Below, piece after piece: positions 36,758 to 63,179 of a stretch of 64,000 bases of DNA (its first letter is position 1; the number at the start of each line of letters is the position of its first letter). This DNA comes from Deltaproteobacteria bacterium. Its GTDB lineage: Bacteria > Myxococcota_A > Polyangia > Fen-1088. The notes below the pieces were generated by a model. The model made no database searches, was not told the DNA's origin, and saw only the letters and a list, made by a program, of their open reading frames with translations. The stretch spans positions 96,001-160,000 of the forward strand of contig JANRKS010000008.1 of NCBI GenBank assembly GCA_033763315.1. Reading direction: 5' to 3'. The translations under genes were made by a program, and so were the position numbers.

Positions 36758-36788
36758 CTGAGTGTCTTGTCCTATTTGGCAAACGCGC

Positions 36789-37376: not shown

Positions 37377-37510
37377 GGGCGATCCGGGCGGTAGTTTGAC
37401 CACCAAGCGGCGCAGCACAAGGGGCAGGTGTGCGCCGCCCTAACTCAACGCGGCTTTGGGACGAGGCCATTTGCTTTGCACCTTCGCCCCCGTAGCGCTA
37501 TGACCGCGGC

Positions 37511-45700: not shown

Positions 45701-46353
45701 AGCAACGCCCACGTCTTTTCGCGCTCGAGCGGGTCGGCTGGCACAACCTTCGCATCGGGGTTGCGCAACAGCTTATCGGCCAACCCTTGCCACAAGCGGC
45801 GTGTGTCACGCTCGGCCCCTAAGATCGCACGGACATCGGCCACGCTCTGGGTGGCCAGATCTTTTGAATGAAAATCGTCGACCGCTTCATCCCGCAAAGG
45901 GCGCGCGTCAGCGATGAGTTCCGCTTCAAAAGGAACGCCGCTTTCCAAAGCGGCCTCCTGCAACACCCGGTGGCAAAACCCGTGAATGGTGGAGATGGGA
46001 GCCTCGTCCACTTCCTCTAAGGCGAGCGCCAACCATTGTCGGTCAACCGCCGCAGTCGCGCGCCGTTGCTGGGCGTACGCGCCCAGATCAGTGGAAGGAG
46101 GGGCCGCCTGAGAGGCCACAAGCTCAAAGGCTTCAAAAGCCTGCCGCAACCGCCGGCGTACGCGATCGCGCAGCTCCGCTGTGGCCGCTTCGGTGAATGT
46201 CACCACCAAGATGTCTTTGATGCGCAGGCGGCGCTCGACCACAAGGCGTGTCACCAGCGAAGTGATGGCGTACGTTTTTCCCGTGCCTGCGCTCGCGTCC
46301 ACGACGTTGCGCCCCTGCAAAGCCACGGCAAAAGCATCGAAGTTGGGGCTCAC
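42757..46353 (-). CDS. recB: Exodeoxyribonuclease V beta subunit
   Basis: Motifs ASAGTGKT, IDEFQDTD, IGDPKQAIYGFRGAD, SKGLEY, LLYVALTRA and the nuclease motif GFVDLVF...LDYKTN. Confidence 0.95.
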   Translation of the reverse strand: MSPNFDAFAVALQGRNVVDASAGTGKTYAITSLVTRLVVERRLRIKDILVVTFTEAATAELRDRVRRRLRQAFEAFELVASQAAPPSTDLGAYAQQRRATAAVDRQWLALALEEVDEAPISTIHGFCHRVLQEAALESGVPFEAELIADARPLRDEAVDDFHSKDLATQSVADVRAILGAERDTRRLWQGLADKLLRNPDAKVVPADPLEREKTWALLRGRLGEVWNRPVVERLICTKAAGYKAPTANHVTNWCNQIDELVRDVAAPAEAPAGVKQLSRSGIVARGSGAPVHPVFDVLEDVAQLLSGKAGPAALVSAKHRFTTFLRDELKARKQSLGAITFDDLLLHLRHALRGPAARHLVNAVRKRFKAALIDEFQDTDPVQFEIFESLFHGGEGPLFLIGDPKQAIYGFRGADVNAYIAAVQAPGTQHHSMGVNWRSDAGLIAAVNSLFAPREMLPRPFVLEGIDFRPVAPRPDVQDVFATQSGVATTPIEVVLTCDDEGGAVDPRNHMAALVAADISRLLAGPTTIAGRSVVPADIAVLTRTNQQAVDVQEALRALQIPAVLLGDKSVLDSDEAKELLVVLAAVAEPTNAALLRNALATRLLGLSAHELVALESDASGWSLWSEVFRSWHELWISRGFVQMFRRFLEHEQVQPRLLGLTDGERRVTNLLHLMELVHRAARQGHLGPAGVVHWLGQAPSNAEGGVAPEEAQIRLESDEAAVKLTTVHRSKGLEYPIVFCPYVANEILMFSADQKAVRFHEADGSVTLDVGSAAMGEHVAMARLETLAENVRLLYVALTRAKHRCVLLWGYSSREFKETSLASLLYPLGTRAVGDDIFGSLGRLTEPELRAPLELWSARCEGAVSVRRANLQDRGVPYVSRTPLAPLLPAREPATRVTVWQRTTSFSGMTAAADHATASLAVARDHDELSLIQALPERGSQVPLGAFPRGAKAGNFFHELLETMDFAASAQALVPAVRAQLQLYRYDETPWSDVLPQVLSSIVRTPLDDGRGAFCLADLPPQKRIAELEFALPLGNVSNETPLQVQLAHAFAVDAATPAEERYAREVSKLHLGALTGFVKGFVDLVFEHAGRFFVLDYKTNHLGRAWADYAPDRLETAMVDGHYHLQSHLYALAVARHLARTLPGYDSRTHFGGVFYVFLRGMGGPQRPMSGVYFQRPSEARLAALDAIFPPGQVHA

Positions 46354-49300
46354 GACCGCGGCCCTTCCTCAAGCGTTCGGTGCGCCAACAAAGGGCCCAC
46401 CACCCGTTCGGCCAGCTCTTCGAATGCAGGCCCGCGTGAGTGCAATGCCGCAAACGGCGGCGCATCGTCACCCAAGGCGCGCGTCCAATGAAACAAAAAC
46501 TTGCTTGCGTCCCTATACGCATTCACGGCGCGTTCCATCGCGGGCCGTTTGGCGTTCTTGCCAGGATCAACGAACGCAAACGCCGCGTCGGCCTGAAAGC
46601 GCAGTGGCGCTTGCTGGCCTTGCAAGAACAACGTGACCAGCTCTTGCAGCAACGGTTGTGGTTGCTCTACCCGGCGAAAGCGCAAAAGCATAGGGATCTC
46701 GAGATCGGGGGCGGGTCCGATCAGCATCGTCACGGGAGGAACATCGGCCGGGGCCAGCCAACACAACATTAAATGGCTGACCCACGCTCGCAGCTGGCGC
46801 CCCGGCTTCAAGCGTCCGAACTGCAGCGACACCGCGCCTGAGCTGTACAGCCCATCCAGCGTGCCCACCAAGTGAACCCCGGATGAAAGCTTTTTGTCGA
46901 AAGGCACGGGCGGCGAAGGCACGGCCATCAGGCCGGTTGCCACCGCGGCGATGCCACTGGCCTGTTGCGAAACTTCTTCTAAGAACACCTGCCCCAGCGA
47001 ACCAAATGGCAAAAGGCCTGTGGCGCGCGAAACGGCAAACACCTGCTCTTGCAGCGCCTGCCCCGCGCCCCGTAAGCCCGCCAGCACACGCGAGCCCACG
47101 TCGTGACGTTGCAGACCACTTAATTGCGTGGGTTCGCGGCTCGGCAAATCGTGCCCCACCTCTGGAAAATCAACGCGCACCCGCCGCTGCAAAAAGAACC
47201 GCAACGGATCGTTGAAGAAGCGCTGCAGATCGGAGAATGCCACTTGCGCCTCCTGCATCGGCGGCAGGGCCTGCGTCACGAAAGGCGGCGGCTCAACCAA
47301 CGAACGCCCCAAACGGCTGGCGGCTTGGTGGAATTGGCCCGCATAACTCCACAAGCGTGCGTCTTGACCGGTGAAATAGCGACGCGAAAAGCCTTGCAAC
47401 GGGTGGCGCACGACCAGCGCCTGTTCCAGCCGATCGCGCGTCACTTCGGGCGTCACCAAAGCGTCAAGCAACTCGCTTAACAACACCGAAGGTGGCCGGA
47501 CGGCGTTGTCGCGCACACTTTGGCCCGTGTATGTGATGAGCAGCTGCTCACGGGCGGCACACAACGTTTCTAAGAACAGATAACGGTCGTCAAGCCGTCG
47601 ATCACGGTCGCCTGGCTGCGGCCCCTGCGGCCCCCGCACCACCAGATCGAAATCCGTGGTCCGCGTGGCGCGCGGGAACGCGCCGTCGTTGAGGCCAAGA
47701 ATGCACACCACACGAAACGGAATCGAACGCATCGGCACCATCGCGCAAAACGTGACGCCGCCGGCAAGAAAACCACGTTCAGGCAACGCCGCATCAACGC
47801 GCTCTTGCAGCCAAGCACGCATCACACCCAGATCCACGTCACCCGTAAAGCCCGCCGATTCAGCTTCACTTTGTAAGGCGCCGAGCGCTTGCCGGATGTG
47901 CTGATGCTGCCAATCCGAAGCTTCGTCGTTGCCAACCAGGTCGCTTAGAAGCACTAAGAATGCTTCGCGCCACGCAGGCACGGTGCGAGGCGCTTGCAGG
48001 GTCTTGATGTGACCGAATAAAGTCTGCAAAAAGCCCACCACCACACCCAGATCCGCCGCTTGCTTGCCTTCAATTTCGTCGTACGGCAAAACGCCGGCAA
48101 ACAGCGCTTGGCCGGCCGTGGGCAGCGCGTACCCCAACAACAGACGATCAAGACCGAACTCCCAGGTATTCTGGTTGTTGGCGGGTTGTCCGTGTTGTTG
48201 TCTGTGATCCGCGTCTAAGCCCCAACGCACGCCCGCGCCCATCAACCATTCCGTGAGCAGATCCAGATCGGCGCCTTGTAGGCCCAAGCGCGATTCGATG
48301 GCCGAGGCGGTGATAAGATCCAACACCGCCGGCGCGCTCATGCGCGAGCCGACCAAATCAAGCGCACGAAAGAACGCATCCACCACGGGGCTATCAGCGC
48401 GCAGTTTGCGATCAGCGATGCGGAAAGGAATGTGCGTGGTCGCGGTGGGATCTTCACCGAACACAGCCTCAACAAAGGGCGCGTACGTCTCCACGTCCGT
48501 CATCATCACCACAACTTCGTGCGGCGCGACGGGATCTTGGGCGCGCGTCATCAGCGCGAGCAGTTGATCGCGGCACACCTGAACTTCGCGCATGGGGCTG
48601 TGGCAAGCGTGAATGCTAATGCTGCCGTCAAGCGCGGGGCCGGCGGGTGGCGCGGCGACAGGCGCCGCCGAAAGAAATGGCAGCGCCATTTGCGCCGTGG
48701 TGCGCGCGGGTTTGCCCTTGCTAGGGATGGGCGACGCCTCCACCGGTGCGGTAGGCGCGGCGTGCAAGTCAAACATCCGCGCTTGCAGCCGGCTCAACAA
48801 CGTGCGCCCGTCGGGCCTCTGATACCGCTCATCCATGGCTTCGCCCAACGTCAAACGTTCGACGGTGTCGCCCAACACACGACGAAAGTCAGCGCCAACA
48901 GTACCGCAAGATGAAACAAGCGGGTGCCCCGGATCCAAATACAAGGCTTGCGGATCTTGGCCGGAGGCCACGGCGCGCGCCCATTCGGTGCGGCTGGTGC
49001 TGTTCCACCAGTCTTTGTCAGAGGGCGAGAACACAAAAATATGCGTTTGCACCCAGCGGCTCGCCGCCAACAACACGCGCACATACGCAGGCGGCAGGCT
49101 GGAGATGCCGAACACGCACACGCGTTCGGGCAAACCGGCGGGCCGGTGCTGTTGCTCTTGCGCCTTGGCGTGCCACAGCTGCTGAACGGCTGCGAAATGT
49201 TGAGCGCCAAACTTGGGTTCGATGCGCCGCCATAGAGCGGCTTGCCACTGTTGCCCCTCATCAATGCCGCCCGTGTCGCCTTGCGACCAAGCCTGCACCA

Positions 49301-49745
49301 ACTCGGGCCGATACGTGATGTAACGATCAAACAGCGTGCCCAAACGACGCGCCAGCTGAAAGCGTTTGGTGCCTCGCTCGTCCTGCTTGAGGTAAGCGCC
49401 GAGGCGCGCAAACGCCGGGTCGTGCAAGCAACTCTCAAATTCCGCGAGCACAAGCCAAGTCAACTGATCTTCGGAAACTTGTGCCGCGGCGGCCGCTTGC
49501 TGTCCCAGCAGCGCTTCCACGCAGCGCTCGGTGTACTTGCGCGGAAAGCTGAAATCGCCGTGGGCAAAGACACCAAAGGCCCCCGCCAAACGCTGCGTCA
49601 GATAAGCAGCCATCCCCCGCCCCTGAACCACGATCGTCTCGCGTGCAAAGGGGCCGCCTTGTTGCGTCGCCACCACTTGCACCAGCGCGTCCACCAACGC
49701 TTCGGTGCGATTGCTATAGTGGGTGTAGATCGGCTCTGGGGTCAC
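46350..49745 (-). CDS. recC: Exodeoxyribonuclease V gamma subunit
   Basis: Motifs SNRTEAL, LFDRYITYRP, HACHSPMREV, GVRWG, PMRSIPFRVVCILGLNDG and DDRYLFLE. Confidence 0.95.
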   Translation of the reverse strand: MTPEPIYTHYSNRTEALVDALVQVVATQQGGPFARETIVVQGRGMAAYLTQRLAGAFGVFAHGDFSFPRKYTERCVEALLGQQAAAAAQVSEDQLTWLVLAEFESCLHDPAFARLGAYLKQDERGTKRFQLARRLGTLFDRYITYRPELVQAWSQGDTGGIDEGQQWQAALWRRIEPKFGAQHFAAVQQLWHAKAQEQQHRPAGLPERVCVFGISSLPPAYVRVLLAASRWVQTHIFVFSPSDKDWWNSTSRTEWARAVASGQDPQALYLDPGHPLVSSCGTVGADFRRVLGDTVERLTLGEAMDERYQRPDGRTLLSRLQARMFDLHAAPTAPVEASPIPSKGKPARTTAQMALPFLSAAPVAAPPAGPALDGSISIHACHSPMREVQVCRDQLLALMTRAQDPVAPHEVVVMMTDVETYAPFVEAVFGEDPTATTHIPFRIADRKLRADSPVVDAFFRALDLVGSRMSAPAVLDLITASAIESRLGLQGADLDLLTEWLMGAGVRWGLDADHRQQHGQPANNQNTWEFGLDRLLLGYALPTAGQALFAGVLPYDEIEGKQAADLGVVVGFLQTLFGHIKTLQAPRTVPAWREAFLVLLSDLVGNDEASDWQHQHIRQALGALQSEAESAGFTGDVDLGVMRAWLQERVDAALPERGFLAGGVTFCAMVPMRSIPFRVVCILGLNDGAFPRATRTTDFDLVVRGPQGPQPGDRDRRLDDRYLFLETLCAAREQLLITYTGQSVRDNAVRPPSVLLSELLDALVTPEVTRDRLEQALVVRHPLQGFSRRYFTGQDARLWSYAGQFHQAASRLGRSLVEPPPFVTQALPPMQEAQVAFSDLQRFFNDPLRFFLQRRVRVDFPEVGHDLPSREPTQLSGLQRHDVGSRVLAGLRGAGQALQEQVFAVSRATGLLPFGSLGQVFLEEVSQQASGIAAVATGLMAVPSPPVPFDKKLSSGVHLVGTLDGLYSSGAVSLQFGRLKPGRQLRAWVSHLMLCWLAPADVPPVTMLIGPAPDLEIPMLLRFRRVEQPQPLLQELVTLFLQGQQAPLRFQADAAFAFVDPGKNAKRPAMERAVNAYRDASKFLFHWTRALGDDAPPFAALHSRGPAFEELAERVVGPLLAHRTLEEGPRS

Positions 49746-49809: not shown

Positions 49810-52800
49810 CTAGCGTGTGTCAGCGGGCAAGCCGCGCTCCGGAACCACGGTAGCCGCCCTGTTGCGCACGCGGTCCAAAGCGGACCGCAAGCCCTTGATG
49901 CGCAGTGGATCAGCATCGGATTCGATCGATCGATTCTGCAGCGCCGCCGCCGCGGCCTGCCAGCTGCCACTTCTCCACGCCACTTGCAGGCGCTCTTCGG
50001 AGGAGACAACGGCCCCTTCACGTTCGGCCGCCAGCAGCGTGTCCCAGGCCCAATCCCAAAGGTGGCGGCGCGCATACCAACGTGACAACGCCATCAGGCG
50101 CGTGGCTTCTGCCACACCTGCTTGCCGTTGCATCGGAGGGTGAGCCCAGGCCTCCTTGCTTTCCAGCAAGTCTGCTGTGTGCAAGAAGTTCTTCGCCGCC
50201 ACAACCACAATGTCGGTGGCTGATGGCGAGAAAGAGACGTGCGGCTCAAGGCTGTCCGCCGTGGCGATCTGAAAAGCGTGCAAGGATTGCCCACGCCTGC
50301 CGTCCCACAGACGCACGGAACCGTCGCCGCTTGCACTCATGACGCGCCCGTTGCGACCGCTCGTCACGGTCACGACCTCTCCAGTGTGGCCCTCCATCCG
50401 TTGTAACTCTATGCCTTTGAATGTGTCGACCACGGAAACAACACGATCACTTCCGCCCACGGCTACGGTTCGGCCATCGTCCGCAAACGACGTGGACCCC
50501 AGGATGCGATCGACTCCTTGCAACCGGGCTTTCCACAGCAGGCGCCTCTGTTGCAATTGCCACATTGCCACTTGCCCATGATCGCCCGATAAAACAAGGC
50601 GTTGACCGTCCCGTGACACGTCCGCGGACCACACGCTGTTGACGCCCGCTTGACCCAACGTCCAAATCGCCTCGCCGGTGTTCGCATCTAGGAGGCGCAA
50701 CGTACCGCTGAGATCGCCCACAACGATGAACCTTTCGTCGGGTGTGTGCGCCGTCGCGCGCGCCCACCCTTGCGTCACGCGAACAGCAAACAATCGTTTG
50801 CCTTGTGGCAAATCCCACACGGAAACCACGCCTGCACCGTTGATCGTTCGCGCACGCATTTGTCCCATGGGTAAGGTCAAAGCGTCAGGCGACTCGTCGG
50901 TCGTTGTTCGATAAAGCTCAGCACCGGTGCTGCGATCCCACCAGGCAAGGTCAGCCCCTGGCCCCTGGGTGAGTATCTGGCGGGCGTCCTGTGAAAAATG
51001 TGCCGCAAAGGTCCCCTCCGTCACATGCCCCCAAAACCACAAGCTGGCCTCGTCGCCCACCCGAAACAGATAAAGCTCACCTTTTGTATCGCCCGCGATC
51101 AGCAATCTGCCGCTGAGGTCCAACGCTGTGGCCGTCAACAGGCCATGTTCAACGGCAAGGGTGCGATCGGCCTTCCCACTGCCCTTCCATTGTCTCACGC
51201 TGCCATCAAAGCTCGCCGTGAGGTAAAGCCCTGAGCCAGGGTCAACGTGAACGCGAGGCACGGCGTGGGTGTGGCCAAGAAACGTGTTCAAAATCGCGAG
51301 CTGTGGATAGCTCAGCTCCGCAAACGAGCCGCTATAGCCAGATGTCACAAGCCGAGGCGGCTGGCCGACGAACTCGGTGGACAGGCTGAATGTGTTCTGG
51401 AAATTACGCATCCGGCTGATTTCTTTGCCGTCGAGAGACGACCAAACGCGCACCGTTTCGTCGGCCCCGCCCCCGATGATGAATTGCCCATCAGGGCTGA
51501 TCGTGAGGGCGCGCAACGTTCCCCGCAACTCAACCGTATGCCAAAGCTCTTTCCGCGAAGCGTAGTCGTAAAGGCGCAGCGTTCCTTTTTCATCACCCAG
51601 AGCCAATCGCTTTCCATCCGGCGAAAACGCGGCTCCTCGCAGCGGTTCAGGGACCACAAGCAGGACCTCAGCAGGGCCAAAGGCCTTGCCATCAAAACGC
51701 CATCGCTCAAGCACGCCCGCGGCGTTGCCACTGACCAATTCGGTGCGTGCGGGGTTTGCCTGCACAAAGTATCGCTTTGGCCCCACGGCAGCGAGCACCT
51801 GCAACGGCGCACCCGTGCGCAGGTCAAACGCGATGAGCTCTCCGTTATCAGAACAAGACACGAATAGATCTTGGCCGGGCAACACCTCTATCCCACGCAC
51901 ACGTTGGTTGTGGCCCTTGGTCCGCCACACGGGGGGCCCTGCGCTGCGGCCAGCATCCAAAGCGCCCAAAACCGCAGACGTGTCGTCGGCGTGTTGACGC
52001 GCGAAGATCTCGCTGGCCTCCGCATAGCGGTCGCGCGCGTCGCTCCAACGTTCGCTCGCAACCCAGGCGTCACCTTCCGCCACCAGCGCTTGCGCCAGCC
52101 TTAGTTCAGTCAAGTTGCGTGCGCGGGTCACGTTCAAAGCATAAAACACTGAACCCACGGACAACGAAAGCACCAGACACATCGACAGCAAGCTCACCCA
52201 AGCCAACGTTCGGTGGCGCCGCGTCCACTTAAGGACGCGTGTCAGCGGACCAATCGGCCCAGCTGAGATTGGTTGGCCGGCCAAGTGCCGACGCAAGTCA
52301 TCGGCCAAGGCGCGCGCGGAGCTATAGCGATGCCGCGGCTCCTTTCCCATGGCTTTGCCGACGATGTGTTCGACTTCACTTTGCACACCACTTGTGATCT
52401 GCCGCAGCGGCGGCGGATCGAAACGCATTAAGCGATAAATGATCTCAAAAGGTGTATCGCCGGAAAATGGCGGTCGCCCCGCAAGCATGTGGTAAAGCGT
52501 CGCGCCCAGGCTGTACACATCGGACCGCTCATCACATCGCCCCGCCTTGGCTTGTTCAGGCGGCATATATTCAAGCGTGCCCAAGATAGAACCCGCCGTG
52601 GTAAGCGTGGATCCACCCTCCGTGGCACGTGCCACGCCGAAGTCCAACACCCATGGGTGCCCATCGTTGTCCAGCATCAAGTTTGAAGGCTTTATGTCAC
52701 GGTGGATCACGCCGTGCTCGTGCGCATACTGCACGGCCTCCGCAACGTCGGCCATCACCTCCAAGCAGCGCCGCGGCGGCAGCCGCACGTCTGCCAGGGT

Positions 52801-53130
52801 TTGACCTTCCACAAGGCGCATCGTCATAAACGGTCGGCTGCGCACCGAGCTAAACTCATAAAGCGGAATGATGTTCGGATGCGACAGCCGCGCCACCATC
52901 TTGGCTTCGCGGCTAAAGCGCTCGATGCGATCCGAATGGCTGTCCACGAGGAACTTCAGCGCGACGAATCGACCTACGCGCAGATCCCACGCGCGATGAA
53001 CTTCACCTCCGCCGCCGTGACCGAGTAAGCCCACGACGACGTATGAGCCAAACACGTTGTCGGGGCTTCTTGCGGCTTGCCGAACTTCGGCAGGCACTTT
53101 GGACTCGTTAGTCCGCGGATCAACCGACAT
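49810..53130 (-). CDS. Hanks-type Ser/Thr protein kinase with TM segment and WD40 repeats
   Basis: Kinase motifs LGHGGGGEV, VALK, HRDIKPSN, DFG and GTLEYMPPEQ, followed by a TM and GH...WD repeats. Confidence 0.9.
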   Translation of the reverse strand: MSVDPRTNESKVPAEVRQAARSPDNVFGSYVVVGLLGHGGGGEVHRAWDLRVGRFVALKFLVDSHSDRIERFSREAKMVARLSHPNIIPLYEFSSVRSRPFMTMRLVEGQTLADVRLPPRRCLEVMADVAEAVQYAHEHGVIHRDIKPSNLMLDNDGHPWVLDFGVARATEGGSTLTTAGSILGTLEYMPPEQAKAGRCDERSDVYSLGATLYHMLAGRPPFSGDTPFEIIYRLMRFDPPPLRQITSGVQSEVEHIVGKAMGKEPRHRYSSARALADDLRRHLAGQPISAGPIGPLTRVLKWTRRHRTLAWVSLLSMCLVLSLSVGSVFYALNVTRARNLTELRLAQALVAEGDAWVASERWSDARDRYAEASEIFARQHADDTSAVLGALDAGRSAGPPVWRTKGHNQRVRGIEVLPGQDLFVSCSDNGELIAFDLRTGAPLQVLAAVGPKRYFVQANPARTELVSGNAAGVLERWRFDGKAFGPAEVLLVVPEPLRGAAFSPDGKRLALGDEKGTLRLYDYASRKELWHTVELRGTLRALTISPDGQFIIGGGADETVRVWSSLDGKEISRMRNFQNTFSLSTEFVGQPPRLVTSGYSGSFAELSYPQLAILNTFLGHTHAVPRVHVDPGSGLYLTASFDGSVRQWKGSGKADRTLAVEHGLLTATALDLSGRLLIAGDTKGELYLFRVGDEASLWFWGHVTEGTFAAHFSQDARQILTQGPGADLAWWDRSTGAELYRTTTDESPDALTLPMGQMRARTINGAGVVSVWDLPQGKRLFAVRVTQGWARATAHTPDERFIVVGDLSGTLRLLDANTGEAIWTLGQAGVNSVWSADVSRDGQRLVLSGDHGQVAMWQLQQRRLLWKARLQGVDRILGSTSFADDGRTVAVGGSDRVVSVVDTFKGIELQRMEGHTGEVVTVTSGRNGRVMSASGDGSVRLWDGRRGQSLHAFQIATADSLEPHVSFSPSATDIVVVAAKNFLHTADLLESKEAWAHPPMQRQAGVAEATRLMALSRWYARRHLWDWAWDTLLAAEREGAVVSSEERLQVAWRSGSWQAAAAALQNRSIESDADPLRIKGLRSALDRVRNRAATVVPERGLPADTR

Positions 53131-53223
53131 AAAGCTGGAAAGGTGTGGCTTACATCGGCGCCTCACAAAGGCGGCTTTAGGCTTGCACGTGCGCGCAGGT
53201 GCCCGAGGCCCCCACACAGATCG

Positions 53224-55161: not shown

Positions 55162-58146
55162 ATGCTCCGATCGCTTGCAATCGCAGTGGCTCTGCTGGCC
55201 ACTTGGCCGGCCCGTGCCGCGGCACCCATCACGTTTGTGCCCCATCGCCCCAGTGGCGCCGTGTTCACAAGCGCGCAGACGCCCGACGGCTACATGTGGT
55301 TTGGCACATTGAATGGCCTTTATCGCTTCGATGGCGTTCGTTACGATCGCTTCGCCCCCGAGAACACGCCCGCGTTCTCACACGCCCGCATCTACCATCT
55401 GGCGGTGACCACCGACGGACGGCTGTGGGTGGCCAGCGGCAACCCGGGCGCACAAAAAGGGCCGTGGGAACGCGGCGGCCCTGGCTTATGGGTGAAAGAC
55501 AAGGCGGGCTTCATCGCCATGCACCAAGCCTTGCCAAGCCCGTGGGTGATGTCGTTGGCCGCCGACGATCACAACCGTCTGTGGGTCGGTACCCAAGAGG
55601 GGCTGGTGGTCGTTGAGGGCAACAAGGTTACGCAGCTTGGGTTTCCCGAACACACCGATCACAACGTTTTTCATGTGCGCCCCGACGGCGAAGGCCGCGT
55701 TTGGATCGGCGCGCAACCTGGTCTCTTTCGCTTTGAAGACGGGCGCTTCACGCAAACGGACGCCGGGCTTTACCCTATCTCCTCGTCCACTGCACCGGAT
55801 GGCACGCTGTGGATGACGAACCTCCACGCGGTTTACCGCCTTTTGCCCGGGCATGATCAGTGGGAACTTTGGCTCAAGGGCGTTGACGTAGGCTTGTCGC
55901 AGATTCGCGCCGTCGCCCAAGATCTGCGTGGCCACGTCTGGGTGGCCGGCTCGGGCCTCGCACGCGTCGATCCCGTCACCAAAAAGACGTCCCCTTTCCA
56001 AGCGATGGATGTCACTTCCGATCCCAATCGCTTCATGATCCATTCGCTGCTGTTTGATCGCGAGGGCAGCTTGTGGGCGGGCTCGCGCGAAGGTGGTGTG
56101 TTTCAAGGCACGCCCGCGCGGGTCGCCAATTACGGCAGCCGCGAAGGTATGCCAGGCGACGTTGGTTTTTCATGCTTGGCCGGCGACGACGCTCACGTCT
56201 ATTTGGCTTACGGAGGCGGTGTCACGCGGGTCATCGACGACACATTCGAGCCGCTGACCGATCTGCCCAACGCTCCGAGGGCGCCGGTTCGTTCAATGGC
56301 ACAGGCGCCTGATCACAGCGTGTGGATGGTGGGTGAGGAAGGTTTCGTGCATCGCCTGGCTCACAAGGCGTTTGCGAAACTGAGCTTGGCCAGCTCAGAC
56401 GCGAAGACGGGCCCCGCCAGCAGCTTGATATTCGATGAACACGGAGATCTTTGGATTGCCTTCGATGGTGGCGTCGTGGGTCGCTACGTTGTACCCGAGG
56501 CGTCAGCTCCCACCGAACCTCTCACACCTGTGCAATCCTTCACGAGCAAGGATGGTCTGTGCCAAGGGCGCCATCTGGTGGCCGCACGTCGACGCGCCGG
56601 GGGCGTTTGGTTTGGCTCGTACGACGAAGGCATCTCACAAGTGTCCGCGGAAGGCGCGACTTGCATCAAAGGCGGTGGCATACCGATTGGCACGATCATG
56701 GGGCTGCATGAAGAGCCTGATGGATCGTTGTACTTCGGCGTCAACGGCATACCCGGCCTGTTTCGGCGGCGGCCGAGCAAGCTATCGCATTACGCGCAAG
56801 GCATCTCGGCCACCGCGTTCGGCATCACCAGCGATCTGCGTGGCCATCTGTGGATGGGATCGTCGGCGGGGGCGCTCAAAGTGACGGTTGCGGATCTGGA
56901 TGCGAACGATGCCTCACCTGATCCCGCGCACGCGCCCTTGCCTTGGCTTGCGTTCTCACACGCGGATGGTTTGCGCGGCGACGAAAGCATGGGGGGCACA
57001 TCGCCGGCCGCGGCCCTCGGCCACGACGGCCGGTTTTGGTTTCCCACGTTGCGCGGCTTTTCAGCCATCGCCGATCCCGAAACATTGACACCCGTACCAC
57101 TCGTGCCGCCCACGGTGCAAAACGTCCGCGCCAACGACGACGAACTTTTGGGCGCGGGCCCGCACGTCTTGCCTGCAGGCACCAAAAGCTTTGCCATTTC
57201 CTACACCAGCGCCACCTTCACGCTGCCAAGCCAGCTTTCCTTTGAGTATCAACTGCAAGGCTTTGATTCCAGTTGGGTGCAGGCACAAAATCGACGCGCG
57301 GCCTTCTACACGAACGTGCCGCCGGGCCGATACCAGTTCATGCTGCGCGTGCGCCGCGGCGGCGGCCGGCCTGTATCGATGCTGCAACCCATGGTGATCA
57401 GGGTTTCACCGTTCTTTTATCAAACTTGGGCGTTTTACCTTGTGGTCGCAGCCCTCGTGCTTGCCGCTGCGTTCGCCGCCCACAAACTGCGTTTGGCACA
57501 GCTGGAAAGCCGCCATTTTGCCATCCACGTCGAACGCGCGCGCTTGGCCCGCGAGCTGCACGATCATCTGGGCCAAGGTTTTACGGCAATCGGTTTTGCT
57601 TTGGACGCTTTGCGCGCGCGGCTCAAAGGCAACGACAGCGCCCATGTGGCGGAGCAGGCGCGTGGCATCCTTGAACACTGTCAGATCGAAACGCGGAGAT
57701 TGGTGTGGGATCTGCGTTCAGAGGCCGAGCGGCATCCCGATCTGCAGGCGGCGTTGCGGCAAATGGTGGAACGGTCGCGGGTGGAAGGCGGGCCGCAGAT
57801 CGAGTTTGTTTGCGAGGGGCAAAGCCAGGTCTCAGGGATGGCACAACACGAGCTGCCACTCATCGCCCAAGAAGCGGTCACCAACGCCCTTCGCCACGCT
57901 CAGGCCGAACGCATCACTGTGAGCTTGCAGTGCAGCGACGCCACCACCACGATCACCGTCACTGACGACGGCAAGGGCTTCCCCGCCAAGCCCGGCGGCG
58001 GCTCGCCCGCCCTTGACGGCCACTTTGGCCTCGTGGGCATGGAAGAGCGCGCGCGACGCTTGCAGGCGGATCTGCAGATTCACAGCGGCCCGGGCGTCGG
58101 CACGGAGATTTCGATCACGGTGTCGAACAACCACGTGAAACCGTAG
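55162..58146 (+). CDS. Sensor histidine kinase with periplasmic beta-propeller (Reg_prop), Y_Y_Y and HisKA_3 domains
   Basis: Repeats such as QTPDGYMWFGTLNGLYRFDG, Y_Y_Y (YTNVPPGRYQF), a TM, ERARLARELHD, DDGKGF and GHFGLVGMEERA. Confidence 0.92.
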   Translation: MLRSLAIAVALLATWPARAAAPITFVPHRPSGAVFTSAQTPDGYMWFGTLNGLYRFDGVRYDRFAPENTPAFSHARIYHLAVTTDGRLWVASGNPGAQKGPWERGGPGLWVKDKAGFIAMHQALPSPWVMSLAADDHNRLWVGTQEGLVVVEGNKVTQLGFPEHTDHNVFHVRPDGEGRVWIGAQPGLFRFEDGRFTQTDAGLYPISSSTAPDGTLWMTNLHAVYRLLPGHDQWELWLKGVDVGLSQIRAVAQDLRGHVWVAGSGLARVDPVTKKTSPFQAMDVTSDPNRFMIHSLLFDREGSLWAGSREGGVFQGTPARVANYGSREGMPGDVGFSCLAGDDAHVYLAYGGGVTRVIDDTFEPLTDLPNAPRAPVRSMAQAPDHSVWMVGEEGFVHRLAHKAFAKLSLASSDAKTGPASSLIFDEHGDLWIAFDGGVVGRYVVPEASAPTEPLTPVQSFTSKDGLCQGRHLVAARRRAGGVWFGSYDEGISQVSAEGATCIKGGGIPIGTIMGLHEEPDGSLYFGVNGIPGLFRRRPSKLSHYAQGISATAFGITSDLRGHLWMGSSAGALKVTVADLDANDASPDPAHAPLPWLAFSHADGLRGDESMGGTSPAAALGHDGRFWFPTLRGFSAIADPETLTPVPLVPPTVQNVRANDDELLGAGPHVLPAGTKSFAISYTSATFTLPSQLSFEYQLQGFDSSWVQAQNRRAAFYTNVPPGRYQFMLRVRRGGGRPVSMLQPMVIRVSPFFYQTWAFYLVVAALVLAAAFAAHKLRLAQLESRHFAIHVERARLARELHDHLGQGFTAIGFALDALRARLKGNDSAHVAEQARGILEHCQIETRRLVWDLRSEAERHPDLQAALRQMVERSRVEGGPQIEFVCEGQSQVSGMAQHELPLIAQEAVTNALRHAQAERITVSLQCSDATTTITVTDDGKGFPAKPGGGSPALDGHFGLVGMEERARRLQADLQIHSGPGVGTEISITVSNNHVKP

Positions 58147-58179
58147 ACATTCGCGTGCCGCTCGCTGAAACTAAACACT

Positions 58180-58815
58180 GTGACCGATCCCACGAACCAC
58201 ATCCGCATCCTTTTGGCGGAAGACAACTTGCTCACACGGTTGGGCACCACCACTTTGTTGGAAACGGAAAGCGATCTGAAAATCGTTGCGACGGCGGCCG
58301 ACGGCGAAGAAGCCGTGGCGCTCTACAACCAGCACCTTCCGGACGTCGCCATCGTGGATCTGAAGATGCCGAAGCTTGATGGGGTGGCCGCCATTGAAGC
58401 CATTCGAAAGCAGCACGCGGAGGCGAAGATCCTAATCCTTACGCACTACCAGGGCGAAGAAGATATCTTCTTGGCGCTTAAAGCCGGTGCGATGGGATAT
58501 GTGTCCAAAGAGATCCGCGGTGAGGCCTTGATCGAGGCCATCCGCACGGTGGCGCGGGGCAGACGCTACTTGCCCCCCGACCTGGCCGAGCGCCTTCGCG
58601 ATCGCGAGCAACGCCCGCCGCTGTCCCCGCGCGAGCGTGAAGTTCTGCGGCTCATATCCAAGGGCCTGACCAACCAACAGATTTCGGAAACGCTGGGTAT
58701 CTCACCTAAGACCACAGCCATCTACGTGGGCAGCCTGCTCCAAAAGCTGGACGCGCAGAGCCGCACAGAAGCCGTGGCCATCGCCATGGAGCGGGGCATT
58801 TTGTCGGCCCTGTGA
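58180..58815 (+). CDS. NarL/LuxR-family response regulator
   Basis: Motifs IRILLAEDN, VDLKMP, AGAMGY and LSPREREVLRLISKGLTNQQI. Confidence 0.95.
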   Translation: MTDPTNHIRILLAEDNLLTRLGTTTLLETESDLKIVATAADGEEAVALYNQHLPDVAIVDLKMPKLDGVAAIEAIRKQHAEAKILILTHYQGEEDIFLALKAGAMGYVSKEIRGEALIEAIRTVARGRRYLPPDLAERLRDREQRPPLSPREREVLRLISKGLTNQQISETLGISPKTTAIYVGSLLQKLDAQSRTEAVAIAMERGILSAL

Positions 58816-58969: not shown

Positions 58970-59005
58970 AAAAAAAAATGAAACCGTCGCCCCGCGGCGA
59001 ACGTA
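58970..59005 (+). promoter_or_regulatory. Putative ECF-sigma promoter with upstream A-tract
   Basis: A9 tract at 58970-58978, then TGAAAC (58979-58984), a 17-nt spacer and CGTA (59002-59005). It lies 43 nt upstream of the precursor ATG. Confidence 0.6.
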
Positions 59006-59048
59006 CTTGTGAACGTCCACTAGACCCACCAACAGGAGACTGAGTTAC

Positions 59049-59375
59049 ATGAGCACGAAGGCAACGTTGATCGCAGCTATGGCCGCTGGTTTTTTGACCG
59101 CCGGCCTTCCTTTGGCCGCCCACGCCAGCCACATGGATGGCAAGTCTGTGGCCGCCGAAAAGGGCAGCTGCAAGGGCAAAGACGGCTGTAAGGGCAAAGA
59201 CGGCTGTAAGGGCAAGGACGGCAAGAAATTTGCCGCCGAAAAGGGCAGCTGTAAAGGCAAAGACGGCTGCAAAGGCAAGGACGGCTGCAAGGGCAAGGAC
59301 GGCAAGAAAGTCGCCGCCGAAAAAGGCAGCTGCAAAGGCAAAGACGGCTGCAAAGGCAAAGACGGCAAGAAGTAG
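59049..59375 (+). CDS. Secreted Cys/Lys-rich RiPP precursor (bufferin/oxazolin-class, MNIO substrate) with 8 CKGKDG repeats
   Basis: AGGAG RBS at 59034 and a Sec signal ending AHA. Repeats vary only at synonymous positions in this frame. It lies directly upstream of the DUF692 and DUF2063 genes. Confidence 0.88.
   Translation: MSTKATLIAAMAAGFLTAGLPLAAHASHMDGKSVAAEKGSCKGKDGCKGKDGCKGKDGKKFAAEKGSCKGKDGCKGKDGCKGKDGKKVAAEKGSCKGKDGCKGKDGKK
59151..59372 (+). repeat. Nested coding tandem repeat: 18-bp units within 81-bp units
   Basis: 81-bp units start at 59151, 59232 and 59313, and the third lacks one 18-bp unit. Unit consensus TGYAARGGCAARGACGGC. Confidence 0.95.
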
Positions 59376-59393
59376 TTCTTCCGCGCACTCTTC

Positions 59394-59430
59394 AAAAAGC
59401 AGCTCTCCTGCAAACGGGGGCTGCTTTTTT
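59394..59430 (+). terminator. Intrinsic terminator-like hairpin between precursor and MNIO gene
   Basis: AAAAAGCAGCTCTC-ctgcaaac-GGGGGCTGCTTTTTT forms a stem with two G-U pairs followed by a U6 tract. Confidence 0.75.
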
Positions 59431-59451
59431 CCTTTCTGGGGAATGATGACG

Positions 59452-60360
59452 ATGCCAAGCAAATCCAGCCACACCGATGTGCCCTTCTTGGGGTTTGGCC
59501 TAGGTCTGCGAACGCCACACTACAGTGAGATCGAAGAGGGTCCCGTCGGCGTCGATTGGTTCGAGGCCATCAGCGAAAACTTCATGCGCCCGGGTGGCAA
59601 CCCACGGCGCGTGCTGCGTGCCATCCGTGAACGCTTCCCCGTCGTACTGCACGGTGTGTCCTTGTCCATCGGTGCGGTTGATCCTTTGAACGAGGAGTAC
59701 CTCAACACGTTGGCGGCGCTGGTCAAAGACGTGGAGCCCACACTGGTATCGGATCACTTGTGCTGGAGCGGCAACCAAGGCTTGTACGCGCATGATCTGC
59801 TGCCGCTGCCTTACACCGAAGAAGCCCTGGAGCATGTGGCAAAACGCATCTTGCAAGTGCAGGACAAGCTCAAGCGCCGCTTGGTGATCGAAAACGTTTC
59901 CAGTTACATGGCGTTTGCGCAATCCACCATGACCGAATGGGAGTTTCTGACCGAGGTGTGCCGCAAAGCTGATTGCTTGCTACTGCTCGACGTGAACAAC
60001 ATCTTCGTCAGCGCCCACAATCACAAGTTTGATGGCTTGGCGTTCATCAATGGCGTGCCCGCTGATCGCGTGGCGCAGATCCATGTGGCCGGGCACCGCA
60101 AGCGCGGCGAACTGCTGCTGGACACGCATGATCACGCTGTGCCCGAAGGGGTGTGGGCTTTATACGAAGCCGCCATCCGGCGCTGTGGCCCCGTATCCAC
60201 TCTGGTGGAGTGGGACGCCGAGATACCTCCTTTGGCCGACGTGATCGCACAAGCGGATCGCGCACGCAGCATCGCCCTACGCGTGCATGGGCCGTTGCAA
60301 GTGCCTCATGGGGAACGTCACACAGTGGCTCCCGCACGCAAAGGGGCGCAACGTGGCTAA
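59452..60360 (+). CDS. Multinuclear non-heme iron oxidase (MNIO, DUF692; BufB/HvfB-like)
   Basis: Motifs GLGLRTPHY, WFEAISENFM, LHGVSLSIG, VSDHLCW, DLLPLPYTEE, IENVSSY, LLLDVNN, QIHVAGH, LDTHD and TLVEWD. The start is one of ATG 59443, 59446 or 59452. Confidence 0.95.
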   Translation: MPSKSSHTDVPFLGFGLGLRTPHYSEIEEGPVGVDWFEAISENFMRPGGNPRRVLRAIRERFPVVLHGVSLSIGAVDPLNEEYLNTLAALVKDVEPTLVSDHLCWSGNQGLYAHDLLPLPYTEEALEHVAKRILQVQDKLKRRLVIENVSSYMAFAQSTMTEWEFLTEVCRKADCLLLLDVNNIFVSAHNHKFDGLAFINGVPADRVAQIHVAGHRKRGELLLDTHDHAVPEGVWALYEAAIRRCGPVSTLVEWDAEIPPLADVIAQADRARSIALRVHGPLQVPHGERHTVAPARKGAQRG

Positions 60361-61168
60361 AGCGCCGCATTTGCCGCTGGCCGCGTTGCAAGAGCGGCTG
60401 TTTAACTTGATCACCGCTCGCGACAACGTCGATGAGACATTGGCCGCACAAGGCCTGCCCCAAAGCCACGTCACCGATCACATATTGGGCGACGATCGCC
60501 TTGATGGCGTTGGCCGCCTCAACATCTACAACAACATGTACTTCTTCCGGTTGTTGGAAGACGTATTGCAAGCGGATTACCCAACGGTGGCCGCGGTGCT
60601 GGGAGAAGAAGGTTTTCGTTCATTGGTGGCCGATTATCTGCAAGCCTGCCCTTCCATCAAACCTTCCGCACGGTATGCCAGTGAACGGTTGCCCTTGTTT
60701 TTGTCGACGTGGGGCACCCCAACGCCTGTGTGGTTGCCATCGCTTGCGGCTTTGGAATGGGCGCGCGTGGACGTTTTCGATGACGCGGATGACGAGAAAC
60801 TGACGCTGCAGCAAGCGCAAGCCACAAGCGATCTGCCTTCGTTGCGGTTGATCCTCGTTACCGCTCACCGCACAGTGAGCTCGTCACACTTGATAGCCGA
60901 CGTATGGCGGGCCGTGGAACACGAAGAAGCTCCGCCTGAGCCCGCCGCGGAGGCTTGCACGTTGCTGGTGTGGCGCGAAGACGCCATGGTTTACCACCGC
61001 CCGCTTTCGGCGGATGAAACGGCCTTCTGGCCGAAGCTGCAAAGCGGCCTTTGCTTTGGTGACCTTTGCGAACACTTGGGCCAAAAGTATTCTGACGCAG
61101 AGGCGGCCGCCACAGCGGTGCAGCTTTTGACAGCTTGGCTAAATGATGGGCTTCTGGCGGCGCGCTAA
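60353..61168 (+). CDS. DUF2063-family MNIO partner protein (BufC/HvfC-like)
   Basis: The GTG overlaps the MNIO stop. Motifs LAALQERLF, RLNIYNNMYFFRL, DYPTV, LAALEWA and LLVWRED. Confidence 0.87.
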   Translation: MAKAPHLPLAALQERLFNLITARDNVDETLAAQGLPQSHVTDHILGDDRLDGVGRLNIYNNMYFFRLLEDVLQADYPTVAAVLGEEGFRSLVADYLQACPSIKPSARYASERLPLFLSTWGTPTPVWLPSLAALEWARVDVFDDADDEKLTLQQAQATSDLPSLRLILVTAHRTVSSSHLIADVWRAVEHEEAPPEPAAEACTLLVWREDAMVYHRPLSADETAFWPKLQSGLCFGDLCEHLGQKYSDAEAAATAVQLLTAWLNDGLLAAR

Positions 61169-61809
61169 CGCCGTTGCCCCACCCACACAGATTCGTGAAA
61201 GCGCGTGCCGCCGCGTTGTTTGAAGCGCTCGTTGTCGCCTAAGGCGTCCACGCGTTCGATCAAAGCCACGTCGAACGCATCGCCATAAAGCGCCTGTACG
61301 ACGTCAGGCTCCACCGAGAAGGGCGGACCGGAAGGCAAATCATGCTCGAAGGTCACCAACAAAAGCTTCGTGCCTGGGTGGCTTAACGCGGCCAAGCGGC
61401 GCGCGTACCCCTCGCGCAGGGTTTCGGGCAAAGCCACAACCGCCGCGCGATCGTAGATGGCGTCCACGGGCCCCACAAGCTCGGACGTGACGGCCAACAT
61501 ATCTGCGACCCAAATCATCACATTCAAGTGGTGGTAACCGACCCAGCCGTGTCGTTCGACGCGCGCCGGAATCACGCCCGCTTCAGCGAAATAAGCTTGG
61601 GCGGCGTCTTCCACAAACTCGACGCCCACAACCGAAAAACCACGTGCGGCGAGGAAGGTCATGTCGAGCGTCTTGCCACACAAGGGCACCAACACCGTTC
61701 CCTTGTCGCCCAATGATTCGACGTGCGCCGCCAAGCGGGGGTTCACGTCAGCCAGATGAAAGGCCGTCTGCCCCGCAGCCCAACGCTCTTCCCAAAACGA
61801 TTTTTCCAT
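61165..61809 (-). CDS. tpm: Thiopurine S-methyltransferase family protein
   Basis: ATG 61809. Motifs FWEERW, VLVPLCGKTLDM, GFSVVGVE, IYDRAAVVALP and GPPFSV. Confidence 0.9.
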   Translation of the reverse strand: MEKSFWEERWAAGQTAFHLADVNPRLAAHVESLGDKGTVLVPLCGKTLDMTFLAARGFSVVGVEFVEDAAQAYFAEAGVIPARVERHGWVGYHHLNVMIWVADMLAVTSELVGPVDAIYDRAAVVALPETLREGYARRLAALSHPGTKLLLVTFEHDLPSGPPFSVEPDVVQALYGDAFDVALIERVDALGDNERFKQRGGTRFHESVWVGQRR

Positions 61810-61814
61810 AGACG

Positions 61815-62978
61815 TTAAACGGCAGCCGCTGCCGCACGGTCCCGGCTTGAAAGACGACGTTCGTTGATCACCACCGCGATGAACGCCGGGTACGTGCCAA
61901 GCGCAAAGGCAAAGAATGCGACCAGTGGCATCTGCAACGCTGTCAGCGTCGCAATGATCAGGATGAACGTATCGCGGCGGGTGGCTTCGCGTGCGGCTTT
62001 GAGCAGTTTGCCCAATGGCCCATCGGTGCTTGCTTTGCCCGTGACCGTGTCGGGGATCGCCATCAAATCCCCGATGCCCATGCGAATCATGCGCCGGTAA
62101 AGCAGGAACGACATCGCCACCTGCACGGCCAAGGTCAACGCACCAAACGCCATCAGGTCCGATCGCCCCAACACCACCGCTTGCCCATAAGCCAAGCCAA
62201 AACAAAACGCGTAATTGGTGACGTCATCACCCACGGTGTCGAGCCACTGCCCCCGATCAGAGAACGTATAGGTCAAACGGGCGATCTCACCATCGCAGCC
62301 ATCCAAGACCGACTGCACCTGGAACAGCAAACCAGCCAGGGCCAACATCCACCAGGGTTGGCCCTGCCCCACCATGAAAGCGGCAACCAACCCAAGACAA
62401 CCGATGCTGATCGTCACCATGTTGGGCGTGATGCCGGTGCGCACGAGCAAGCTGGAGCAAAACAGAGACATATAACGGTTGAGGTTTCGCGAGATGAAGC
62501 CATCAATGGGCTTGCGCAACGACAGCAACAACGATCGGTGCGCCCGCGCCGCCGACGCACGATCCACCACGCGCAAGGCAAAGCCACGCCCCGATTCCGC
62601 GACGCCCTGGCCAAGCTTCAGCAAAGCGCCGTCTAGATCACCAACGAAGGCGTCGAGGTCTGACGCCGGCACGCGCGCCAATGGCAAACCGCTCGGCAAC
62701 GCATCCGCTGTGATCATCTGGCGATCAAAAACGGCGTCGCTCGTGGTCACAAGCACGGTGCCTTCACGTGGCACCGCGGCCAAAGCCACCTCTCCCACCG
62801 CGGCGCGCTTTGAGGTCGGTCGCGTGCCGGGGCCCACGAACGCCACTTGCTTCACGCCGGAAAACGAAAGCGCCAGCAAGACACGTTCGCCCAACGTCAG
62901 GCCCAGCAACTTCCGCTTCGCACCATCACCCGCGGGGCAAATCACAATGGCTGTATGCGGAGGCGTGGTCGTTGTCAT
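61815..62978 (-). CDS. CDP-alcohol phosphatidyltransferase with N-terminal soluble domain
   Basis: Motifs DGFISRNLNR, ITPNMVT and DGCDGEIARL...GQWLDTVGD. Confidence 0.87.
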   Translation of the reverse strand: MTTTTPPHTAIVICPAGDGAKRKLLGLTLGERVLLALSFSGVKQVAFVGPGTRPTSKRAAVGEVALAAVPREGTVLVTTSDAVFDRQMITADALPSGLPLARVPASDLDAFVGDLDGALLKLGQGVAESGRGFALRVVDRASAARAHRSLLLSLRKPIDGFISRNLNRYMSLFCSSLLVRTGITPNMVTISIGCLGLVAAFMVGQGQPWWMLALAGLLFQVQSVLDGCDGEIARLTYTFSDRGQWLDTVGDDVTNYAFCFGLAYGQAVVLGRSDLMAFGALTLAVQVAMSFLLYRRMIRMGIGDLMAIPDTVTGKASTDGPLGKLLKAAREATRRDTFILIIATLTALQMPLVAFFAFALGTYPAFIAVVINERRLSSRDRAAAAAV

Positions 62979-63179
62979 GGTGGTCTTCTGCACTAGGCTG
63001 CGAACGGTGTCACACCTAGAAGGCGCGTGCAACCTAGGGTGCGGCCGGGGCCCACACGCAGGCTGCGCAGCGCAGCACCTAACCCGACAAAACCAAGCGC
63101 GGCGCTGTAAAACCTTGTGATTTGAAGGGTGCTTCGGCGCGCTTGGCGTTGCTGCGCTTGGGCGCCTGGCCGATACTCG

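Follow-up and report, generated by a model that had tools for sequence, protein, structure and literature searches.

We analyzed a 64,000-nt stretch of a deltaproteobacterial genome (Deltaproteobacteria bacterium, assembly GCA_033763315.1, contig JANRKS010000008.1, positions 96,001 to 160,000 of the forward strand; hereafter the window) and focused on the region 58970..61168. Three co-directional genes lie there in the order A-B-C and encode a small Cys-rich precursor peptide, a DUF692 enzyme of the MNIO family, and a DUF2063 partner protein. These genes probably constitute a Buf2-type cluster for a peptide made by ribosomes and modified after translation (RiPP), within the Cys-Lys group of captophorins. 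The product is predicted to be flexible and Lys-rich, to carry up to eight 5-thiooxazoles and to bind copper in the periplasm. The cluster would be expressed from a SigF-type promoter, with a hairpin setting an excess of precursor over enzymes. We place the probability of this reading at about 0.8.

Products of MNIO-PME1 pairs that contain 5-thiooxazoles, as demonstrated in fontiphorin, oxazolin, and gonophorin, are termed captophorins; they are described as one of the largest RiPP families, at over 24,000 MNIO-PME1 loci (PMC13097082). An initial annotation of the window, made from the letters alone, had already proposed a RiPP locus in which an MNIO and a DUF2063 protein act on an exported Cys-rich precursor. 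The searches reported here agree with that proposal, as the enzyme passes the BufB cut-off and the modelled fold of the partner resembles those of TglI and NGO1945. The features of the locus are as follows.

58980..59005, + strand: candidate extracytoplasmic function (ECF) promoter of SigF type, GAAACC-N16-CGTA, with its end 43 nt upstream of the precursor's ATG
59049..59375, + strand: precursor gene (bufA-like), open reading frame (ORF) of 108 aa, with AGGAG 9 nt 5' of the ATG
59151..59366, + strand: tandem repeat of 81 nt (27 aa) in 2.7 copies, Tandem Repeats Finder score 369, 91% matches
59394..59429, + strand: stem-loop with a 14-bp stem and then a T-run, between the precursor and MNIO genes
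59443 (or ATG 59452)..60360, + strand: MNIO (DUF692) maturase, BufB-type, intact and without stops
60353..61168, + strand: DUF2063 partner (BufC / PME1 type), GTG at 60353 being the likeliest start, with AAGGGG 6 nt upstream

The precursor peptide

The precursor opens with a region (~59049-59126) that reads as a Sec signal, in which MSTK precedes a hydrophobic stretch and a cleavage site, placed by eye between AHA and S. The core of 82 aa that follows contains 8 Cys, 26 Lys, 20 Gly, and 9 Asp. The Cys occupy residues 41, 47, 53, 68, 74, 80, 95, and 101 of the precursor (spacings of 6, 6, 15, 6, 6, 15, and 6). All eight stand in the context CKGKDG and each is followed by Lys, in agreement with the exported eight-Cys precursor described in the initial annotation. 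The tandem repeat encodes three AAEKGS-(CKGKDG)n-KK units with 3, 3, and 2 Cys, and because it is an 81-nt repeat with 91% matches and a score of 369 the CKGKDG array is not a chance pattern. Contigs from four other DNA runs gave fragments, none of which spanned the whole array, so the repeat copy number rests on a single assembly; pieces from the X2 and X3 runs together cover the precursor gene and the beginning of the MNIO gene (~58985-60160) with differences of a few percent.

The composition of this core distinguishes it from other precursor types. A Lys-Cys dipeptide is absent, which places the peptide outside the EGKCG type (Buf_EGKCG/oxazolin) and bears out the earlier contrast between a CKGKDG array and the EGKCG core of HvfA. 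The Pfam scan gave no DUF2282 (PF10048) match to the precursor, and nowhere in the genome did DUF2282 rise above its cut-off (best 16.1 bits against 22.4). A Cys-Lys precursor group has been defined among the captophorins (PMC13097082), and the window locus falls within it, with Lys after 8 of 8 Cys and adjacent MNIO and PME1 genes.

Gly is found at every third residue inside each unit (GKD-GCK-GKD; window 59160-59366; 6 triplets per unit), a periodicity that accounts for a weak match to the Pfam Collagen family (PF01391, 21.4 bits against 27.2) and for weak matches to Scl adhesins, also below cut-off (SclB 325). It could in principle mark a collagen-like or structural low-complexity secreted protein. 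Such a protein is hardly credible here and was already disfavoured: the matches stay below their cut-offs, each run has 6 triplets and no Pro, the runs are interrupted, and the gene lies in a RiPP context.

The unit structure would also suit a multi-core precursor, whose AAEKGS-(CKGKDG)n-KK units would be separated by cleavage once modified and exported, giving peptides of 2-3 thiooxazoles instead of one chain of 82 residues. The three 27-aa units are near-identical, with an AAEKGS opening and a KK closing, AEK, ADK, or GEK openings before the first Cys recur in relatives, and no fold is predicted for the precursor. This arrangement is nonetheless improbable, as no protease gene occurs in or beside the locus, relatives with a single unit exist, and the known bufferins are reported to remain a single chain after removal of the signal peptide (PMC11626156).

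The enzyme and its partner

The DUF692 gene is intact, as the initial annotation had stated, and its alternative start at ATG 59452 is better spaced from a GGGGA motif. Its product matched PF05114 (MbnB_TglH_ChrH) with 364.4 bits against a threshold of 25 over profile positions 2-261 of 263, and passed the BufB equivalog model NF050167 (369.2 bits, cut-off 310) over the whole profile (1-262). Scores remained below the cut-offs of HvfB (NF003818; 266.6 bits against 360) and MbnB (49.7 bits against 325), and likewise below those of ApyH and ChrH. Ten residues (H70, H105, E150, D183, N186, H214, D227, H229, E256, and D258) do not vary across 45 aligned homologues; we take these to be the iron ligands and the catalytic Asp, after the MbnB/TglH structures and FonB-Asp249. 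The best named relatives of the enzyme come from deltaproteobacterial or Myxococcota metagenome-assembled genomes (MAGs) and share 53-61% identity with it.

One segment separates this enzyme from the BufA2-linked ones of Pseudomonadota. Residues 256-262 (window 60208-60228) read EWDAEIP, and the BufA2-linked MNIOs of Pseudomonadota read ERDD(N/A)IP; aligned at the Asp of the Asp-Phe pair in the Histophilus somni MNIO (H. somni, 3BWW), the window enzyme shows EWDAE. The ERDD(N/A) form agrees with the Asp reported at the site after the catalytic Asp in Cys-Lys MNIOs of Pseudomonadota (PMC13097082). EWDAE is frequent outside Pseudomonadota. Enzymes with it also adjoin canonical 6-Cys precursors in several phyla, so the difference is not specific to the repeat core.

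The partner gene overlaps the MNIO stop by 8 nt, as expected for the translationally coupled DUF2063 partner of the initial annotation. Its product matched PF09836 (DUF2063, N-terminal) with 50.9 bits against 27.2 and reached 42.2 bits in the HvfC model NF050145, below the cut-off of 142. An AlphaFold (AF2) model made from 17 sequences had a predicted local distance difference test score (pLDDT) of 90.2. Foldseek matched this model to TglI (8hi7_A, E = 2.4e-6) and to NGO1945 (3DEE; TM score 0.82 on the target, root-mean-square deviation 2.9 A), with MbnC lower in the list of structural matches, and querying the PDB with the sequence of the partner returned nothing at E <= 1. TglI, NGO1945, and MbnC are known MNIO partner proteins, and on its predicted structure the window protein is a partner of the PME1/BufC type. 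In the profile searches, BufB, PF05114, and DUF2063 were matched, and the cut-offs of BufA2, DUF2282, HvfB, and HvfC were not reached.

Relatives and origin of the repeat-type precursor

Our comparison covered 40 related genomes, 24 of them in the same family, and the 19 best loci from other genomes. An MNIO gene was found in 18 of the 24 same-family genomes. The neighbourhood of this gene, which the initial annotation had singled out as a check, proved conserved: a DUF2063 homologue follows the MNIO gene in all 19 loci and a precursor lies upstream in 17. Eleven of these precursors are canonical, 6-Cys, and BufA2-like, and six are of a short or repeat CKGK type with 5 (G001), 6 (G002), 5 (G014), 3 (G019), 2 (G011), and 2 (G013) Cys. 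Of the two loci where no precursor was found, one is at a contig end and the other has no candidate.

The signal peptides of canonical and repeat precursors are near-identical; in G006 a canonical core stands behind MTTKGTLIAAMAAGFL..., and the window precursor begins MSTKATLIAAMAAGFL.... Alignment of the window precursor with a canonical BufA2-type relative by BLASTP gave 43% identity (E = 2e-14), mainly over the signal peptide and the CKGK motifs. The proposal that the precursor is closest to BufA2 is supported by these similarities and by the canonical BufA2 found at the orthologous locus. The near-identical signal peptides indicate that the repeat type, as judged from sequence, derives from BufA2: its signal peptide and central CKGK sites were retained, and the outer pair of Cys was lost together with the C-terminal portion. 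In the MNIO tree the window enzyme groups with two relatives of the same genus (support 100/95), and this group sits inside a 28-row polytomy that holds both precursor types (midpoint-rooted tree, with 8 outgroup rows hand-picked from 48 loci). The tree therefore does not separate one from several origins of repeat-type precursors.

A search of 5.8 billion proteins returned 173 matches of 59-189 aa at E <= 0.01. Among the 120 matches listed out of these 173, CKGKDG occurs at least once in 79, at least twice in 26, and three times, the maximum, in 5, compared with eight times in the window precursor. The named matches are mostly from Verrucomicrobiota MAGs and have a different signal peptide, and some join CKGKD repeats to a BufA2-like centre. 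Longer or fused forms of the precursor were sought among proteins of 190-2000 aa, with none at E <= 0.001, which is weak evidence.

Peptides of this style have been recorded before. Small precursors that have 1-18 Cys and no classification are reported, in the hundreds, to precede the MNIOs of the large cluster (PMC12452194). Data set S2 of PMC13097082 contains CK-style ORFs located by PME1 genes, including 4 rows in which KDGCK is the called repeat, in 2-5 copies, and the string CKGKDGCKGKDG occurs in it once. A full-text literature search for motif strings of the CKGKDG/KDGCK type found no paper, the motifs being present only in that supplementary table. CK-style repeat precursors are already catalogued, and in the searchable literature they are neither discussed nor studied. 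The suggestion of an undescribed subfamily was too strong, given that the Cys-Lys group has a name and that ORFs with KDGCK repeats are listed (PMC13097082).

On the one hand, the locus leaves the current picture of the bufferin/captophorin family unchanged. On the other hand, bench work on the family is limited to folded members (Buf1, Buf2) and those with EGKCG repeats, and the relatives described above form a natural series with eight CKGKDG sites in the window, 2 to 6 Cys in other repeat-type precursors, and canonical BufA2 at the same locus in sister genera. With this series one could ask how many Cys are processed by a BufB-type enzyme, how small a recognition unit can be, and whether copper capacity grows in step with repeat number.

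Expression signals and candidate regulon

The hairpin noted in the initial annotation was recovered with a minimum free energy of -25.1 kcal/mol (z = -3.4), and none of 200 shuffles folded as well. A stem-loop occurs at the same position in all eight loci folded, namely the window locus, to which the shuffle control applies, and seven relatives. It is probably a partial terminator or a transcript stabiliser that would set the precursor:enzyme ratio.

The initial annotation had also noted a promoter. No sigma-70 match was found on the + strand upstream of the precursor gene, but the ECF-type motif GAAACC-N16-CGTA is present at 58980-59005, inside the coordinates of that annotation. It has one change in the -35 element relative to the family motif and two substitutions relative to the Caulobacter sigma-F site, which is GTAACC-N16-CGAA and experimentally supported (PMC3511200, Fig. 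2 legend). The strict family motif, GTAAC-N15-17-CGTA, was observed in 14 of 25 precursor upstream regions of the family (163 nt each), compared with 0.00037 expected per 163 nt at its genome rate (35 matches in 15.3 Mb, both strands counted). A looser form was observed in 17 of the 25 against 0.024 expected. With this motif, the SigF-bufferin link of Alphaproteobacteria would reach a myxobacterial group. The following genes elsewhere in the genome are associated with it.

C5:275813-277143 (L129:1814-3144), - strand: ECF sigma gene (Sigma70_r2/r4) and membrane ORF, a candidate sigma/anti-sigma pair
C2:4209-6665 (L132): copper-type P1B ATPase (YHS + HMBD), TIGR01511 597 against 397 bits, GAAAC-N15-17-CGTA upstream
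C9:39965-40462 (L137): second DoxX gene, GAAAC-N15-17-CGTA upstream
C35:19354-20499 (L139): MsrB-MsrA fusion, GAAAC-N15-17-CGTA upstream

Specifically, a strict motif (GTAACC-N16-CGTA) stands 6 nt before the sigma gene, which overlaps a 255-aa multi-pass membrane ORF that has an N-terminal, ZAS-like HxxxCxxC and no Pfam or NCBIfam match. The P1B ATPase, the C9 DoxX, and MsrB-MsrA may share the regulon of the precursor, or their motif matches may be due to chance. The motif also points to the sigma factor, the DoxX genes, and the copper pump as probable partners of the peptide.

The same candidate regulon bears on what the peptide is for. Both Caulobacter buf operons are reported to be copper-induced and to belong to the SigF regulon, with buf2 being protective (PMC11626156). 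The same enzymes and chemistry could also yield a product for another metal, or a sacrificial scavenger of periplasmic oxidants. Caulobacter sigma-F targets induced by chromate and cadmium include DUF692 operons (PMC3511200), an Azospira SigF/NrsF regulon is described as answering reactive chlorine through a sacrificial Met-rich peptide (PMC4436054), some bufferin fusions are placed in mercury clusters (PMC12452194), and the MsrB-MsrA gene in this genome bears the loose motif. We regard a role other than copper as unlikely, however, since those bufferins and captophorins that have been characterised bind copper and give protection from it (PMC11626156, PMC13097082), and the copper-type P1B ATPase has the same loose motif.

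A second precursor and a second MNIO

Two further loci in the assembly touch on the reach of the window enzymes.

C2:182643-183482 (L079:1483-2322): second repeat precursor (L079:1483-1692) and DoxX gene
C7 ~180125-180856 (L002:1063-3140): second, divergent MNIO, PF05114 122 bits, below every NCBIfam MNIO cut-off

The second precursor has 69 aa and 4 Cys, all in CKGKDG, and scored 26.2 bits in the BufA2 model, below the cut-off of 60; the same profile found one precursor each in G001 and G002. A DoxX gene (PF07681, 75.5 bits) begins 33 nt after it, with a stem-loop between the two. Upstream of the precursor, whose earliest possible start codon is a GTG, lies a strict GTAAC-N15-CGTA motif with its end 52 nt from that codon. 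We considered a recent duplication as the source of the two precursors and rejected it, as the genes differ at the DNA level: a two-sequence alignment gave a mean column identity of 75% and the signal-peptide region has visibly diverged.

The assembly holds only two MNIO genes. The one on C7 overlaps an upstream ORF for a lipoprotein-like protein of 279 aa, is followed by an ORF of 113 aa and has remnants of IS66 type in its surroundings, with no DUF2063 partner. Because the only other MNIO is distant and lacks a DUF2063 neighbour, the BufB/BufC pair of the window is likely the maturase of both precursors, and would then act on the second one in trans. Many precursor genes are reported to lie apart from MNIO genes (PMC12452194).

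These observations also bear on the DoxX gene and the sigma/anti-sigma pair, whose absence the initial annotation had counted among the peculiarities of the locus. Neither was found in the window (Pfam scan of 47 of 49 picked ORFs plus the thiopurine S-methyltransferase ORF), but this does not distinguish the locus, being normal for Buf2-type clusters (PMC11626156, PMC12452194). Caulobacter buf2 is described as bufA2B2C2 without bufD, and DoxX as dispensable for bufferin modification (PMC11626156); genes for the sigma factor and NrsF are reported in Buf1 biosynthetic gene clusters and not in those of Buf2 (PMC12452194).

A broader picture, possible and yet on balance doubtful, is that of a distributed, repeat-expanded bufferin system in one Polyangia-like lineage. 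Disordered CKGK(D/G/E)G arrays would here replace the folded 6-Cys BufA2, two unlinked precursors (one with DoxX) would share a single BufB/BufC pair, and a SigF-like sigma factor would be paired with a membrane anti-sigma of ZAS type and not with NrsF. The number of Cys would change fast in such a system (2, 2, 3, 5, 5, 6, and 8 at the orthologous locus), and each 27-aa unit (AAEKGS, Cys array, and KK) may carry its own recognition element.

Proposed pathway and points against it

For the Buf2-type cluster preferred here, we propose the following course. Expression would probably be driven by a SigF-like ECF sigma factor encoded elsewhere in the genome. The precursor would be made in excess, the stem-loop after its gene probably limiting read-through into the enzyme genes. 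The BufB-type iron enzyme and its DUF2063 partner with a RiPP recognition element (RRE) would then oxidise the Cys of the CKG motifs to 5-thiooxazoles, with a loss of ~4 Da each and up to eight per peptide. The Sec system would export the product and remove the signal peptide, and the flexible, Lys-rich, multi-thiooxazole peptide would bind copper in the periplasm. The same enzyme pair would probably also serve the 4-Cys repeat precursor beside DoxX on the other contig. In Buf2 itself, four central Cys are reported to shift by -4.03 Da each, the outer two probably form a disulfide, and absorbance appears near 305 nm (PMC11626156).

Several observations weigh against this proposal. The precursor scored 18.6 bits in the BufA2/Buf_6/12Cys model (NF050166), below the cut-off of 60, and three repeat-type relatives tested scored 21-33 bits, compared with 67-90 bits for the canonical relatives' precursors used as a positive control, 7 of 7 of which were above the cut-off. 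It has no counterpart to the first (xVHC) or last (ECKxKGG) Cys of the relatives, and its predicted structure has a pLDDT of 43 and no confident fold. Given this failure of the BufA2 model, the lack of the outer disulfide Cys pair, and the low-confidence structure, the precursor may behave unlike the characterised bufferins. The enzyme carries Ala-Glu after the proposed catalytic Asp, where Asp is reported for the Cys-Lys MNIOs of Pseudomonadota. As for regulation, the window locus bears the weaker form of the motif (GAAACC), the motif pattern was defined after the sequences had been viewed and in genomes related to each other, and NrsF, the usual anti-sigma of SigF, was not found in this 91%-complete genome. 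GTAAC or GAAAC with N15-17 and CGTA together match 145 times genome-wide, and for this reason single matches, such as that at the ATPase, may be chance.

Another reading of the small ORF is an exported Cys/Lys-rich peptide that stays unmodified, either binding metal through plain thiolates or not being the substrate of the enzyme at all. Its failure in the BufA2 model would fit this, as would the report that FonBC leaves motifs with a charged residue after Cys unprocessed (PMC13097082). FonB belongs to the Lys-Cys group, however, and BufB2-type enzymes are reported to act on Cys-Lys sites (PMC13097082). The bufA position before a BufB equivalog and the homologous signal peptide also recur in 17 of the 19 relatives' loci, that is, in all where a precursor was found. 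An unmodified peptide is thus very improbable, and modification by the window enzymes remains the preferred reading.

Genomic surroundings

Two features flank the cluster and are given as context.

55162..58815, + strand: large histidine kinase (HisKA_3, with Reg_prop/Y_Y_Y propeller repeats) and LuxR-type response regulator, directly upstream
61165..61800, - strand: thiopurine S-methyltransferase-family gene, convergent, PF05724 187.6 bits

The LuxR-type regulator ends 233 nt before the precursor, and the two-component system was considered as a dedicated regulator of the cluster. The kinase is not in the neighbourhoods of the same-genus genomes G001 and G002: in G002 only the C-terminal half of the LuxR-type regulator was matched upstream, and in G001 neither kinase nor regulator was found. 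Since the adjacency is not conserved in the genus, this role is not supported. On the other side, the - strand of the window (61165-63032) carries the thiopurine S-methyltransferase-family gene and a gene with a CDP-alcohol phosphatidyltransferase domain, convergent with the cluster, and the position of both is kept in G001 and G002.

Further away, the window contains a trio on the - strand (32115-37418) encoding a DUF2760 protein and two Hsp70-like proteins, one of them with DUF3731 (DnaK-related). It also holds RecBCD genes (40907-49745) and, at 49810-53217, a fusion of a Ser/Thr kinase with WD40 propellers.

Comparison with known systems

One of the systems compared is methanobactin (MbnABC), a copper-binding RiPP in which an MNIO acts on Cys with a partner protein. 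Methanobactin has oxazolone-thioamide chemistry and a leader peptide instead of a Sec signal, and is a secreted chalkophore.

Bufferin 1 (BufA1BCD with SigF/NrsF) has the same enzyme and partner families, and involves DoxX and a SigF-type regulon, of which the window locus is a candidate member. In the present genome, in contrast, DoxX and the sigma factor are on other contigs, an HxxxCxxC gene follows the sigma gene in place of NrsF, and no DUF2282 match rises above its cut-off.

FonABC/HvfABC likewise combine an MNIO with a DUF2063/RRE partner and an exported repeat precursor, of which many Cys are reported to become 5-thiooxazoles, and they have a link to copper. Their repeat is EGKCG, with Lys before Cys, whereas the window peptide is free of Lys-Cys and its enzyme reads EWDA and not Asp-Phe as in the H. 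somni MNIO (3BWW).

Among catalogued peptides, S2 entries of Gadgil et al. 2026 such as those listed under WP_083270191.1 and WP_129046240.1 similarly carry KDGCK/CKGKD repeats behind a signal peptide, the 5-mer being present 4-5 times; their arrays are less regular (CKAKE and CKSKD variants) and their signal peptide is different, whereas 8 of 8 sites are identical in the window (PMC13097082).

The greatest likeness is to BufA2-BufB2-BufC2 of Caulobacter vibrioides. Both clusters have the A-B-C order, no DoxX or sigma pair within the cluster, a Sec signal, Cys in CKG-type motifs (those modified in Buf2), a BufB-passing enzyme, and, upstream, a SigF-type motif that in the window is a candidate promoter. 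They differ in the core, which is a folded 6-Cys domain in Buf2 and a tandem array of eight identical CKGKDG sites in the window; the window precursor lacks both the outer Cys pair of the disulfide and the C-terminal G(W/F)xEM...C.KGG segment. Overall, the enzyme pair is typical of its family and the precursor fits the published Cys-Lys group, which makes the locus a variant of a known RiPP class that is repeat-expanded, probably disordered, and unusual only in its very regular core.

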